DNA of 64,000 nt from contig NW_005434597.1 of NCBI RefSeq assembly GCF_000315625.1, positions 126,382-190,381 on the forward strand, written 5' to 3'. Of the stretch, positions 56 through 12,968 are shown piece by piece. How positions within the stretch are numbered: the stretch's first letter is position 1; each line of letters opens with the position of its first letter. Origin of the DNA: Guillardia theta CCMP2712 (lineage: Eukaryota > Protista > Cryptophyta). The notes under the pieces were generated by a model. That model searched no databases, was not told the DNA's origin, and was given only the letters and a program-made list of their open reading frames with translations. A program made the position numbers and the translations under genes.

Positions 56-913
56 CTAGCAAGTCACTGAGTGGCAGAAGCTCAACGGCTCACCGATCGC
101 CGCGAGCTGGCAGCATCGCTCTCCGCACTCGAGGAGGGAGAGACTGTTGAGGGAGGGTCGTTGACGTCGAAGAAAGCCGGCCCGCTGACGAGGAACGAAA
201 CCTGCAGGTTGTGAGGGACAGCAAAGTTCGTCCTGCACAAGTACCTTCCTTCCTGGCTCAGGAGAAGATACGAGAAGCTCTTGGCCTCCTCCCACTGCCC
301 AAGGAGGCGCTATCGTCTTTGGTCGTTTCCAGATATCACCAGCATATGGTTGAGAATGATTGGCTGCCCCTTTGGTCGCCATGACATTTGTGGACCCACG
401 TTGTGATGCCTGAGCATTGTCTGGTCTCTCTCCCTCTTGATGCAGAGCCCATGGAGGAGCGCTGCTTCCATTGTTTTCATGCCCCTGAGCACTTTCGCGC
501 CTACTACCAGCAGGTCTGATGAGGTTTGCTTCAGCTTTCTCTCTTGGTGCTTGCGCTACTCTCCCTGCTGGATGCGATGGCGTCCTCGCCTCATCTTTCT
601 CGCCATCATCTCTCTCCTGTCGTCTTGTCGCAAATCGTCTCCCTTTTCCTCCTTCGCCTTCATCGTAGTCTGTAGCCCATGGCGGCTTCAGCATTCCCGT
701 ACCCACATCTCCGCTCGTGCCCACTACGCCCGGCCCGGAGCCCCTGCCGGAGCCCGGCCGACTGAGTTCGCCTGATTGACTGAGGCGAGCCTGAGATGGC
801 ACGCCATGCACATAAGCGAGATTGCTGACAGCTAGTCCCCGTCCTCCCTCCTCCTCTTCCTCCTCTCCTCCTACTTCTATCCTCCTCTCCTCCTCCTCTC
901 CTATCATCAACAT
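56..913 (-). CDS. Hypothetical low-complexity protein with three PPWA motifs; start uncertain, may continue off the window edge
   Basis: 285-aa ORF containing KPPWAT, APPWAL and APPWAV; rich in charged residues and Gly; no family recognised. The 5' part is a GA-rich tract and may be non-coding. Confidence 0.35.
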   Translation of the reverse strand: MLMIGEEEERRIEVGGEEEEEEGGRGLAVSNLAYVHGVPSQARLSQSGELSRPGSGRGSGPGVVGTSGDVGTGMLKPPWATDYDEGEGGKGRRFATRRQERDDGEKDEARTPSHPAGRVAQAPREKAEANLIRPAGSRRESAQGHENNGSSAPPWALHQEGERPDNAQASQRGSTNVMATKGAANHSQPYAGDIWKRPKTIAPPWAVGGGQELLVSSPEPGRKVLVQDELCCPSQPAGFVPRQRAGFLRRQRPSLNSLSLLECGERCCQLAAIGEPLSFCHSVTC

Positions 914-969
914 CCTGTACTTGCCGCGCTCCTACATATCCTGCGCTTGTTCCTCTGCCCTCCTTCATT

Positions 970-2936
970 ATGCTCCTTTACTTGGCATTATTGCTGTGCA
1001 ACACCATGCCGACTGCACAGGCTTTTCTGCTTCAAGCGCGTCCTATTCTGATACCTGTGGGCTTCAAAGTCAGCTGCTCATTTTCCGGTGGCATCAGAAT
1101 GTCTGCGAGTAGCAACAGACCGCTGAGCAAGGCGATCGACCCTTCAAAGCTCCTAAATGGCTTGTACACGGACGATGATGTCCTCATCTCCGACCTAACA
1201 TCGCGGTCACGTGCCAACTGGGCGAAGGATCTTCTTTCAGTCGCGAGCTCTCGAGTTCTCGCGCGTATATCGCAGAGGATGACCATCACAACAGCTTGGG
1301 CAGCATACGTCACAGCTCTCATCACCTGGGGAGATTACCTCGCTCCTCCTTCCTGGGGGAGTTTCACCCAATTCACCGTTCCTGGCTGGCCCCATGAGCT
1401 TGTGGGGGCCTTTCTCTCCATCCTCCTTGTCTTCAGGACTGATCAGGCGTATGACCGCTTCTGGGAGGGCAGGAAGCAATGGTCTTCACTGAACAGTCAA
1501 TGTCGGAGCATTTCGAGACTAGTGCTGTCGAACCTGCCTATTGGAATGGCCCAGGAGTTCTTGTCGCTGGTTGCTCTGTTTCCTGTTGCCTTGAAGCAAC
1601 ATCTTCGAGGTGATAGGAACGAGAGAGAGCTGGCGGCTGTCTTCCACCTGTTCCAACCCAAGAATGTGAAAACCCTGGAGATTGTGTTGGAGTCAAAGAA
1701 CATGCCCATGACTGTTGTATGGTGTATGTCTCAGCTATCAGCACCACTAAGAAAGAACAGAGCCTCGCGGATCTTCAACTACGAGGTGTTGTGGGAGGAG
1801 ATGGAAGAGAAGCTGTCGGAGCTTGCGGACATTGTCAGCCAATGCGAGAAGATAAAGTGTACGCCACTGCCTCTCAGTTACTCCCGGCACACCAGTCGCT
1901 TCTTCTCTTTGTTCTTGTTCTCGTTGCCGCTGGCCCTAGTGAAGGAAACGTCTCCGCTTCTAGTGCCAACTATCGTCCTCACCACGAGTTGGGTCTTGTT
2001 CGCCACAGAAGAGATTGGCCACATCATCGAAGAGCCTTTCGGCACCATCGACAGCAAGTCGGCTGGTCGTCGTACCCAAAGGCAATCTAGCATCATGGTA
2101 GATCTCGAGATGTGGCGACTCGTGCTGAATTGATCTTGATGTCCAGGATGTCAAGGTCTACTTCGATAAGGTTGACCTCGACGGTGACGGGTTCATTACT
2201 GTGCGGGATATCACGGAGATGCTCCCAGACATTGTCGGGATGAGCGTTTCGAGCTCGCAGGTGAGTTCATCACTCTCATGGCAGGGACATAACGGTCTTC
2301 AGGCTGAGCAAGTGCTGTCACGCCTGGACCTAAATGGAGACAGCAGAGTTGATTTCGAAGAATTCCGCCTTATCTGGGCCTTCATGAATGGCAGTCCTAG
2401 ACTGGACCGGGTGAAAGAAAAATAGCCCTGCGTGCACGAAGAGCTGATCACTTCTCAGCTCGAGACTCTGCCGTTGAGTAAGTATTGCGATGCGATCCTC
2501 CGGGAACTCTTCTATCTGTGGAGAACACAACAATGTTCGGTGCTGCAAGAGACCCTAAGCGATGCTCGTCTCGATGAGGACGCGATCAAGCTTCTTGGTT
2601 TGGGTATGTTACCAGTATGAAGACAAAGCTGTTGAGCCATTCGTAGATCCCAATGCAAGTTCTTCAAAACCTGGTGGGTGGGATAGAGCAGCAGTTTGTG
2701 CGTGGGCAAAAAATCTGGGCCTGGAGGAGGCTGCAAGATTGTTGGAAGCCAATGACGTGGATGGCAAGGTGAGGATTACAAAGGACATGAGGCGTCGGTT
2801 GTCAGTGATACTCCTGCAGATACTTGTATCCTTGAACGAAGAAGACTTGATCGAGATGGGCCTTGATTGTCCCAAAATCCGTTCTCGACTTCTGAATTCG
2901 ATTCCTGAAGGACTAAGACAGAAACAAGATTCATAG
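970..2936 (+). CDS. Plastid-targeted bestrophin-like (UPF0187/VCCN1/BST-type) anion channel with two EF-hands and a C-terminal SAM domain
   Basis: Motifs LLVFRTDQAYDRFWEGRKQW, CEKIKCTPLPLSYSRH, EEIGHIIEEPFG and LPLSKYCDAI. Signal peptide ending TAQA|F. In-frame GT-AG introns at 2098-2146, 2261-2302 and 2411-2458. EF loops DLDGDGFITVRD and DLNGDSRVDFEE. SAM-like WDRAAVCAWAKNLGL...NDVDGK..LVSLNEEDLIEMG. One junction near 2535-2617 is not resolved. Confidence 0.85.
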
Positions 2937-2976
2937 ATGGGGGGATACAAAAGTGCAATATTATGTACAGTAAATT

Positions 2977-4751
2977 TTACACCCAGTCTCCTTCTCGCAG
3001 CTTCCTTGGGAGATATTCTTGAGTGAGGTATTGGAATCCCTTGCTTGTGAATGCCTCTGCGCAGACCAAGTAAATCCCTCCGAAGCACAACAAGAAGATC
3101 ATACGAATTTCTGCTTTTTCCTTTCTCGAAAGCAGAGTTTCCAGCTCCTAAAAAATGTTTCAGTACAAATAATTGAGGCACTCACATTGCACCTTAACCC
3201 AAGCTGATCGTTTCTGAATGTAAGGCTTCTCTTTTAGACTTTCAGCAAAGCTCACGTCGTGGGTGGTCAGTTCCAATCTATTCTTGAAATGTAACCACAA
3301 GAAATCCATCATCAATGATTTACCTGCATTCTCGTGGAACATTGTACTTGTCCAAATCCGAGGGACGGACTCCCAGCCACTTGATATCAGGCGTAGCGAG
3401 ATTTGCGCTGTCGTGAGACATTGCCTCCGAACCTTGCATGTAAACCGAAAGAATCTTCAACCCATGGGCATCACTATCAAACAATCCGAGAATTGGGATC
3501 TTGAGAGCATCCTTGACTCTCCTCAAAAACATTCTTGTAGCCAAATCTGCTTCGCCTTTGCCCTGCATGAAGCTGGTAAGATTCGGGAGATGACTGCACT
3601 CGTGCCGCAATGACCGTAATTATCACGCAAGGATAAGTATTGTAGAATCTGTCTTCTGCCAAACGTTGAAAAGCTGCATCTTTCTCAACTAGAAGGATGA
3701 ATTCTGCTGGCCTGAAAACAAAAGATCACTAACTGTCAATCAAAACGACACAAATGTGATGAAGACAATCATGTTCATTTACCGGTCATAGTCTGACTTG
3801 ATGTTTGAGACCCTGTCGAGACGAGCATGGTTTACACTTCTGAGGGTAGAAAGAAGCAAATCACCGATCCAAAAATGAAGGGATGTTCTTTCCACTCCTT
3901 CCCATCTTTGTACAATCAATGAAGTCGTCATCATCATTGAACTGCAATCTTCCAACCACAAGTCCTTTTTCAGATGCCGTGACCTTGTAAAGAATAATCC
4001 AAAATGAGAACAGCTGCATAGATATGGCAGAAATAACCTGCAGACTGTGACGAGTACATCCGAACATCAGTGAAAGTTCCTCCAGCACTGCATCACTGTT
4101 CTGCTGCTTCTCGAACAGCTTTACATCCGCATAGAACAGATCACGTTTTGTGCTGTGAATTGCAAGTGAGAGGAGCTTCGCGGTAGCGCCAGGTGGTGAG
4201 GCAATGCACCTGTGAATGTTCTTCTTCGCCAATTCATGCACCAACTGCATGAGGCGGGTCATCATCGTCGTTCGCCTGAAGGCACATCATCCAAGGACCG
4301 TCTCGCAGCTCTCTCTCGCGTACTTGACTTGAGAGGAATCAGCAAACTGTCGCTTCATGGCCTTGTACTCAAGATAATTCCTATCAAGCTCGGGCACGAA
4401 CTGGACATTGGTAGCACTGCCTCGCTGAGCAAAGGTAAACGCCAGACCTGCACATCAATCTGAGGACGAAGGAGAGGCAGAAACAAACATTCAATCATGA
4501 CAGAGGTCTATACCTCGGCCATCGAGAATGGAAGCGACAGCCTGGCATGCGACAAGTTCAATGTTCTTCCTGACTTCTTCCGGGCTCTGATCGGACACTT
4601 CGAAGAGGTTCGTATATCCCAGCTCCGAGACCGAGGAGGCTGCTTGTGAGGACTGTTGGAGGTGGCGGGCAAGAGTTCTGACTTCCTTGAGCGTCTCCTC
4701 CATGTCCTCTTGCGACATGTCCGCCGCTTCCGCTCGCCGCTTCTTGGACAT
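2977..4751 (-). CDS. TOP6A: DNA topoisomerase VI subunit A (SPO11-3 type), multi-exon
   Basis: Catalytic-Tyr motif [53 protein letters not shown], toprim DSD motif ([13 protein letters not shown]), [10 protein letters not shown] and C-terminal [13 protein letters not shown] (stop at 2977-2979). ATG at 4749-4751. Confidence 0.92.
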
Positions 4752-12910: not shown

Positions 12911-12968
12911 AGTTCCTCTCAATGCTCCTTACCCGCTCATGCGGGAGTTCAGATAGCAGTCGCCATAC

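Follow-up and report, generated by a model that had tools for sequence, protein, structure and literature searches.

EF-hand pair predicted to occupy the Ca2+-clasp loop of a putative plastid bestrophin in cryptophyte algae

In chicken BEST1, the loop between TM4 and helix S8 forms a Ca2+ clasp, and the equivalent loop of VCCN1, an anion channel of plant thylakoids, is described without the acidic residues in the relevant part of PMC9076864. The same account places the VCCN1 loop in the stroma, has changes in the loop transmitted to the neck, and suggests that an unknown stromal signal opens VCCN1; the N-terminal NAH and NCH helices (Pro69–Thr107 segment) are reported there to be needed for activity. 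Plastid VCCN1 has been described as Ca2+-independent, and excerpts of PMC4890181 state that the activity of AtVCCN1 is not affected by Ca2+. For human BEST1, an EF-hand was once proposed by modelling at residues 312–323 (PMC2585866, as excerpted). Bestrhodopsin, whose sensor is a rhodopsin that precedes the channel in a single fusion protein, shows that algal bestrophins accept foreign sensor domains. A precedent from a red secondary plastid is diatom KEA3, a thylakoid ion-transport protein that gained an EF-hand pair, binds Ca2+ and loses its activity without the EF-hands, according to part of 10.1101/2021.09.06.459119. KEA3 is a K+/H+ antiporter with the pair at its C-terminus, whereas at the locus described here the pair lies inside the core fold of a predicted anion channel.

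The gene lies on the plus strand of the window, the whole 64,000-nucleotide stretch of DNA analyzed. Its ATG is at 970 and its stop codon ends at 2936, and five introns, all GT–AG, divide it into six exons; the spliced product is a VCCN1/BST-type bestrophin of 577 residues. Exon 1 (970–2097), an open frame, encodes the presequence, the bestrophin core (TM1–TM4 and the stromal helices), EEPFG (2029–2043) and the first 18 residues of an insert. Intron 1 (2098–2146, 49 nt, phase 0) precedes exon 2 (2147–2260), which encodes EF-hand 1, and intron 2 (2261–2302, 42 nt, phase 0), which is in frame and free of stop codons, separates it from exon 3 (2303–2410), which encodes EF-hand 2. After intron 3 (2411–2458, 48 nt, phase 0), exon 4 (2459–2603) encodes the last three insert residues, LPLSKYC (2468–2488), the last core helix S8 and then a linker. 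Intron 4 (2604–2646, 43 nt, phase 1) leads to exon 5 (2647–2768), in which the first half of a SAM domain starts at 2679, and intron 5 (2769–2819, 51 nt, phase 0) to exon 6 (2820–2936), with the second half of that domain (to ~2903) and the stop codon. The sequence-only reading had placed the two motifs at these same positions and estimated ~90 residues between them; the long insert is real, with an exact length of 95 residues. Its assignment of the EF-hand pair to two exons with phase-0 introns is correct as to phase and splice sites, and the insert itself overhangs these exons by 18 residues in exon 1 and 3 residues in exon 4. The continuation of the gene through introns 4 and 5 into the SAM domain was missed in that reading.

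Splicing was checked with contigs from eight sequencing runs placed on window positions 800–3100, the RNA nature of the spliced runs being presumed. All five joints were spliced in contigs of four presumed-RNA runs (X1, X2, X6 and X3) from three studies, with cover of exon 1 from 913. The EF-hand exons are thus spliced to the bestrophin exons in these contigs, a point for which the sequence-only reading had proposed cDNA confirmation and on which its claim could have failed. Run X8 contributed joints 3–5 and run X10 joint 3 only, both with cover gaps elsewhere, so that the intron 3 joint was seen in six runs. Contigs of run X12 were unspliced through 913–2877, as DNA would read, and two reads of the raw-read RNA run X18 matched. 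No joint skipping exons 2–3 was found among the contigs of these runs, from which rare forms drop out; such skipping would preserve the reading frame. The database protein from this window, P0002 (344 residues), lacks the presequence and ends inside intron 1, into which its reading frame continues from exon 1. This gene model is wrong, and with it the public annotation hides the EF-hands. Because the models of P0124 and P0037, two further members of the subfamily, likewise stop just before the EF-hands, the architecture is under-reported by genome annotation.

Two other features of the window were recorded. The downstream neighbor on the minus strand (~3000–4750) matches TP6A_N (Spo11/topoisomerase VI A; E = 4.8e-17 at 3864–4286), and its spliced 3′ end seems to reach the 3′ end of the bestrophin gene, judging from contigs that have a loose end at 3056. 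On the plus strand at 12957–48081, three giant open frames of 1013, 4651 and 6062 codons abut one another, mostly at 40–45% GC vs ~55% around them. The first begins like a signal peptide, and parts of the frames match Gly_rich_2, fn3, Laminin_G_3 and REJ in Pfam, with no match in the 4650-residue middle. Together they probably make up a single gene with few introns, whose product would be a cell-surface protein more than 11,000 residues long.

Exon 1 matched Pfam Bestrophin_2 (PF25539) over residues 78–359 with 194 bits (cut-off 27; E = 3.8e-57). Sequence searches of solved structures matched VCCN1 best (7ek1, E = 6.5e-27), together with KpBest and bestrhodopsin. At E up to 1, they brought up no animal bestrophin. 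VCCN1 is the best match by both sequence and structure, and the earlier assignment to the UPF0187/VCCN1/BST family holds. In the TM2 neck segment AFLSILLVFRTD (1408–1443, plus strand), the residues A, I, F and D align with a VCCN1 segment containing three neck residues and the Glu of a Glu–Tyr pair (phmmer against 7ek1, matched by eye), whose roles are taken from part of PMC9076864. The neck residues on TM2 and the pair of a TM2 acid and a TM3 Tyr are retained in this alignment. The segment is nearly invariant in 18 EF-insert proteins, with Asp (16) or Asn (2) at the position of the VCCN1 Glu. EEPFG, aligned to 7ek1 and KpBest, marks the end of TM4 and the start of the TM4–S8 loop. The window's protein thus has PF25539, the hydrophobic neck, the acid/Tyr pair and a plastid-type presequence in common with VCCN1 (PDB 7ek1–7ek3) and algal BSTs. 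VCCN1 is insensitive to Ca2+, and its TM4–S8 loop is short and has no Ca2+ motif. In the window's protein, this loop holds 95 residues with an EF-hand pair, and a SAM domain stands at the C-terminus (exons 5–6 read through intron 5; Pfam SAM_2, 26.1 bits, cut-off 20.5). Additionally, the EF-insert clade and the sister clade without EF-hands share a conserved acidic motif, TDDG/TDDD, where the mature core starts (window 1168–1179). The motif sits at the start of the structural match to the BEST1 N-terminus and is a candidate contact or metal site.

The presequence begins with a predicted signal peptide (970–1023, plus strand) that ends in AQA with Phe at +1, followed by a predicted transit peptide that is basic, rich in Ser/Thr and poor in acids, as judged from hydropathy and composition. 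By inspection, residues 19–60 contain one D/E, six K/R and eight S/T. This pattern fits the rule of signal peptide, Phe and basic transit peptide given for plastid import in diatoms and cryptophytes (PMC4329603, excerpted text) and agrees with the plastid location proposed from the sequence alone. A Phe after the hydrophobic leader was also present in nine other full-length members, P0006, P0008, P0009, P0010, P0018, P0020, P0022, P0025 and P0123, and was not clearly found in P0003; many other subfamily members are cut at the N-terminus.

Both loops of the insert are canonical by pattern, with ligands at positions 1, 3, 5 and 12 and a hydrophobic residue at position 8. They lie where the sequence-only reading had reported two EF loops: EF loop 1, DLDGDGFITVRD (2174–2209, plus strand), in exon 2 with Asp rather than Glu at position 12, and EF loop 2, DLNGDSRVDFEE (2327–2362, plus strand), in exon 3 with Ser rather than Gly at position 6. 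Asp at position 12 and Ser at position 6 of an EF loop may lower affinity or selectivity. Exons 2–3, read through the in-frame intron 2, exceeded the Pfam cut-offs for EF-hand_1 (E = 2.5e-10), EF-hand_5, EF-hand_6 and EF-hand_7, so the pattern is not due to chance. Between EEPFG and the first EF helix lies a linker of about 20 residues that varies among homologues.

Conservation of the loops was assessed in 59 sequences with a loop of at least 85 residues, thinned to 20 at under 80% identity. Loop 1 was canonical in 16, loop 2 in 18 and both in 16 of these 20 non-redundant inserts (the window's protein included), although identity to the window's insert is 25–41%. Mean entropy was 0.83 bits in the eight ligand columns vs 2.38 bits in the 76 other columns (p = 2.5e-5, an optimistic value as related sequences were counted as independent), and 2.45 bits in the ten non-ligand loop columns. 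Ligand conservation of this kind would point to ion binding, not to gating. Degenerate loops were found in P0004 and P0055 (loop 1) and in P0035 and P0075 (both loops). All four belong to the window protein's own subclade, where they make up four of the six inserts, and P0035 and P0075 are among the tree rows nearest to the window's protein. In these two proteins, the helices and the SAM domain are retained, with no EF-hand match in Pfam.

To place the insert in the fold, the homologue P0007, 44% identical to the window's protein, was modeled from a 100-sequence alignment (mean pLDDT 85, pTM 0.71). Residues 7–428 of the model matched VCCN1 106–418 (7ek3; Z 25.5, rmsd 3.1, 306 aligned), and residues 7–420 matched human BEST1 2–328 (8d1i; Z 19.4, rmsd 3.5, 297 aligned); these matches give aligned ranges, not residue pairs. 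Both ranges extend past the insert and include helix 399–423, the counterpart of S8, and the chain thus comes back to the S8 position once the insert has ended. The insert itself (312–382) matched CaBP1 (Z 12.5, rmsd 1.6, 71 aligned), and residues 491–557 matched a SAM domain (Z 12.0). In the model, then, a calmodulin-like lobe would occupy the TM4–S8 loop, the clasp loop of animals. Together with the description of that loop in the cited part of PMC9076864, the alignments to VCCN1 and BEST1 bear out the sequence-only proposal that the insert stands at the clasp position. The low-confidence residues 301–304 (pLDDT under 50) fall in the variable linker before the lobe, which fits a loosely tethered lobe. 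The alignments begin at VCCN1 105–107, past the Pro69–Thr107 segment, where P0007 itself starts, and the VCCN1 NAH and NCH helices fall outside the aligned range. The model also has the bacterial-type bestrophin fold in common with KpBest (4wd8, Z 23–24) and bestrhodopsin (7pl9, Z 20.9), the matched parts of which are without EF-hands. A search of the ESM Atlas gave no usable match.

The animal bestrophins BEST1 and BEST2, which are Ca2+-activated Cl- channels, share the fold (Z ~19) and a Ca2+-type site in the same TM4–S8 loop, here predicted from sequence. However, at 9–15% identity, they have a short acidic clasp loop where the cryptophyte protein would have a folded calmodulin-like lobe. 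There is no acidic cluster after EEPF in the window's protein (one Asp in the next 16 residues), in line with the earlier proposal that its site originated independently of the animal clasp. The EF-hand once modeled at BEST1 312–323 lies in another place and has another sequence.

A search with exon 1 yielded 204 proteins among 5019 candidates, and the loop was scored in the best 120 of the 204. Both flanking motifs were scorable in 92 of the 120 (first motif missing in 17, second in 11). Within these 92, the loop has at most 15 residues in 43 proteins, 16–50 in 21, 51–85 in 7 and more than 85 in 21. All 21 of the longest loops carry an EF-type insert at the same place, and the seven of 51–85 residues have no EF-hands. 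The sequence-only reading had taken the loop to be uniformly short; this premise does not hold, as 28 of the 92 homologues have 16–85 residues there without an EF pair. When the insert region of P0010 was used as the query, the 24 proteins that matched had all been found before, and a profile search of 1.84 billion representatives added P0149, P0162 and the fragment P0267 among the best 150 matches. Named EF-insert members come from Chroomonas (P0004) and Hanusia phi (P0014, P0009), and the truncated P0124 and P0037 come from Guillardia theta; from these few names we infer that the subfamily is restricted to cryptophytes. An EF-insert bestrophin labeled as an archaeal MAG (P0276, on a contig of 1723 bases) falls in one cluster with P0162; it probably comes from an alga and was misbinned. 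EF-hand pairs have also been fused to algal bestrophins after S8 in Symbiodinium (P0205, P0230) and before the channel in P0197, as independent fusions.

A tree of 74 rows (the window's protein and 73 of the 120 hits) was built with near-copies, fragments and everything after the E-PF motif excluded. The 21 EF-insert rows fell on one side of a branch with moderate support (90/69; 90% of 200 bootstrap trees), and the EF insert marks a subfamily that holds together on this core-only tree. The sister clade (joint support 100/97), whose named members are the haptophytes Pavlovales sp. and Diacronema lutheri, has an unrelated amphipathic insert of 60–80 residues without EF-hands in the same loop. 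In one EF subgroup, a profile of this sister insert matched the segment behind the EF pair in 7 of 10 proteins above the best of 500 shuffles, and in the window protein's subgroup in 0 of 9. The TM4–S8 loop therefore likely had taken an insert before the EF pair arrived. The sequence-only reading had pointed to phase-0 introns around the EF exons. At locus L001 of genome B12, from the same order, introns 1–3 are all absent, the core, EF-hand 1 and the start of EF-hand 2 lie in one exon, and an intron interrupts EF loop 2 instead. The introns are thus no sign of exon shuffling, which is unsupported as the origin of the insert.

Three architectures occur among EF-insert members: the EF pair only; the EF pair plus an additional pair that is joined to SAM (P0004, P0007, P0010, P0012 and P0149); and the EF pair with SAM, as in the window's protein. 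About half of the members (P0014, P0016, P0018, P0020, P0022, P0025, P0026 and P0030) have no SAM and keep both loops canonical. The SAM domain, the subfamily, and the paralogues with four or with decayed EF-hands all go beyond the sequence-only reading. In STIM, the SAM domain is packed into the EF-hand cleft. The domain order of STIM, an EF pair followed directly by SAM, recurs in P0004, P0007, P0010 and P0012, whereas the window's own protein is without the second EF pair. In a model of the C-terminal EF-EF-SAM tail (six-sequence alignment, pLDDT 79.5), the last EF helix runs into the first SAM helix. This model differed from STIM (6pw7) with TM 0.42 and rmsd 12.3 over 138 columns, and STIM was not in the top 50 structure matches; STIM-like EF-SAM packing is not supported by this model of the paralogue tails.

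Searches of the literature on bestrophins (EF-hand, thylakoid, cryptophyte, VCCN1/clasp, bestrhodopsin and algal BSTs), covering titles, abstracts and excerpts among the matches listed, gave no description of an EF-hand bestrophin in algae. The main text of PMC11142338 contains no occurrence of EF-hand or cryptophyte. VCCN-like genes of cryptophytes are reported in PMC5948301, the excerpts of which make no mention of EF-hand domains, and PMC11375080 contains both bestrophin and EF-hand, in unrelated places. UniRef gives one subfamily member the automatic name 'EF-hand domain-containing protein'. The EF-insert bestrophin is a real and conserved, apparently undescribed architecture within an established family of channels, and KEA3 is an earlier instance of the theme.

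We propose, at about even confidence, that the EF-insert bestrophin is imported into the plastid and acts as an anion channel of the thylakoid, with stromal Ca2+ modulating its opening by way of the EF pair. The signal peptide and the +1 Phe make import to the stroma very probable. By analogy with VCCN1 and algal BSTs, the protein would probably reside in the thylakoid rather than the envelope, with its loop facing the stroma as in VCCN1, and it is likely a pentameric anion channel. Binding of Ca2+ by the EF lobe is predicted with good confidence for this copy. By analogy with the BEST1 clasp loop, a Ca2+-driven change in the lobe might then be passed through two tethers, the end of TM4 and S8, to the neck, a step for which the balance is even; activation would be more likely than inhibition. 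A rise in stromal Ca2+, as occurs in diatoms with high light and H2O2 (PMC11663583, in part), would increase the flow of Cl- or HCO3- into the lumen, HCO3- delivery being the alternative cargo (PMC11142338, in part). If an anion channel opened as Ca2+ increased, the electric field would be dissipated in favor of the pH gradient. The proton-motive force would accordingly shift towards the gradient driving cryptophyte quenching, or the CO2-concentrating mechanism would be fed. In Rhodomonas salina, quenching is described as fast and pH-driven, by direct antenna protonation and with no xanthophyll cycle (PMC3250475, excerpted text). The SAM domain may cluster channels or bind partners.

Several observations count against gating and lead to other readings. 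Position alone shows no coupling, because the TM4–S8 loop is a permissive site: inserts of widely differing length occur there without EF-hands, and that of the sister clade is unrelated. Further points against gating are the degenerate loops in the window protein's subclade, the substitutions at loop 1 position 12 and loop 2 position 6 of this copy, the linker that fits a loosely tethered lobe, a site chemistry other than that of the clasp, and flanking introns that are not conserved. The EF pair could be a passenger or have a structural role in a loop that accepts insertions, or it could buffer Ca2+/Mg2+ locally; in this paralogue it would then regulate nothing, and the channel would be controlled by voltage or pH like VCCN1. 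The wide spread of loop lengths and the decay of four of six inserts in the window protein's subclade would fit such a lobe, as would the Ca2+-insensitivity of AtVCCN1 (PMC4890181, in part) and the frequent grafting of EF-hands onto plastid proteins of these algae, such as KEA3, DSP1 and Tic20. However, a passenger would be expected to lose its ligands, as P0035 and P0075 did, whereas 16 of 20 divergent inserts, the window's included, keep the ligand positions while neighboring loop positions vary freely. We therefore regard a lobe of this kind as quite unlikely.

Alternatively, the EF pair may bind Ca2+ and, together with SAM, control assembly, clustering, localization or partner binding instead of the pore, in which case the paralogues whose SAM is joined to an additional EF pair would be Ca2+-switched clustering channels. 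The SAM domain of the window's protein, its retention in P0035 and P0075 despite decayed EF loops, the EF-EF-SAM tails of five paralogues, modeled with the last EF helix continuing into SAM, and the flexible linker ahead of the insert all speak for such a role. Yet both loops stay canonical in the members without SAM, and the modeled tail has the domain order of STIM but does not appear to share its packing; control of clustering or partners rather than the pore is unlikely on this evidence. A Ca2+-regulated channel could also sit in the plastid envelope membrane or further out, passing Cl- or HCO3- between the stroma and the periplastid space, since the presequence predicts plastid import only and not the final membrane, and since VCCN1 itself lies outside this clade (~25% identical to the P0007 model when the structures are aligned). 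The characterized plastid bestrophins, however, are thylakoid proteins in the cited parts of PMC4890181, PMC6708349 and PMC11142346, and an envelope location appears very unlikely.

Returning to Ca2+ modulation of a thylakoid channel, these algae have likely re-invented Ca2+ control of a bestrophin. In its fullest form, which we put forward only tentatively and consider rather improbable, cryptophytes rebuilt a Ca2+-activated Cl- channel from a Ca2+-blind bacterial-type bestrophin by placing a calmodulin-like lobe in the animal-clasp loop. They would then have expanded a thylakoid set with two, four or no working EF-hands, some of them SAM-clustered, through which stromal Ca2+ would act on photoprotection or on the uptake of carbon. 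Because the EF pair is intact in some paralogues, doubled in others and decayed in a few, Ca2+ control is open to a comparative test. If the proposal is true, a natural Ca2+ sensor at the clasp position would show that sensors of unrelated kinds can act on the bestrophin gate through this loop as a general lever, and the protein would be the first molecular candidate for Ca2+ control of thylakoid anion flow, in algae with lumen-pH-dependent photoprotection.
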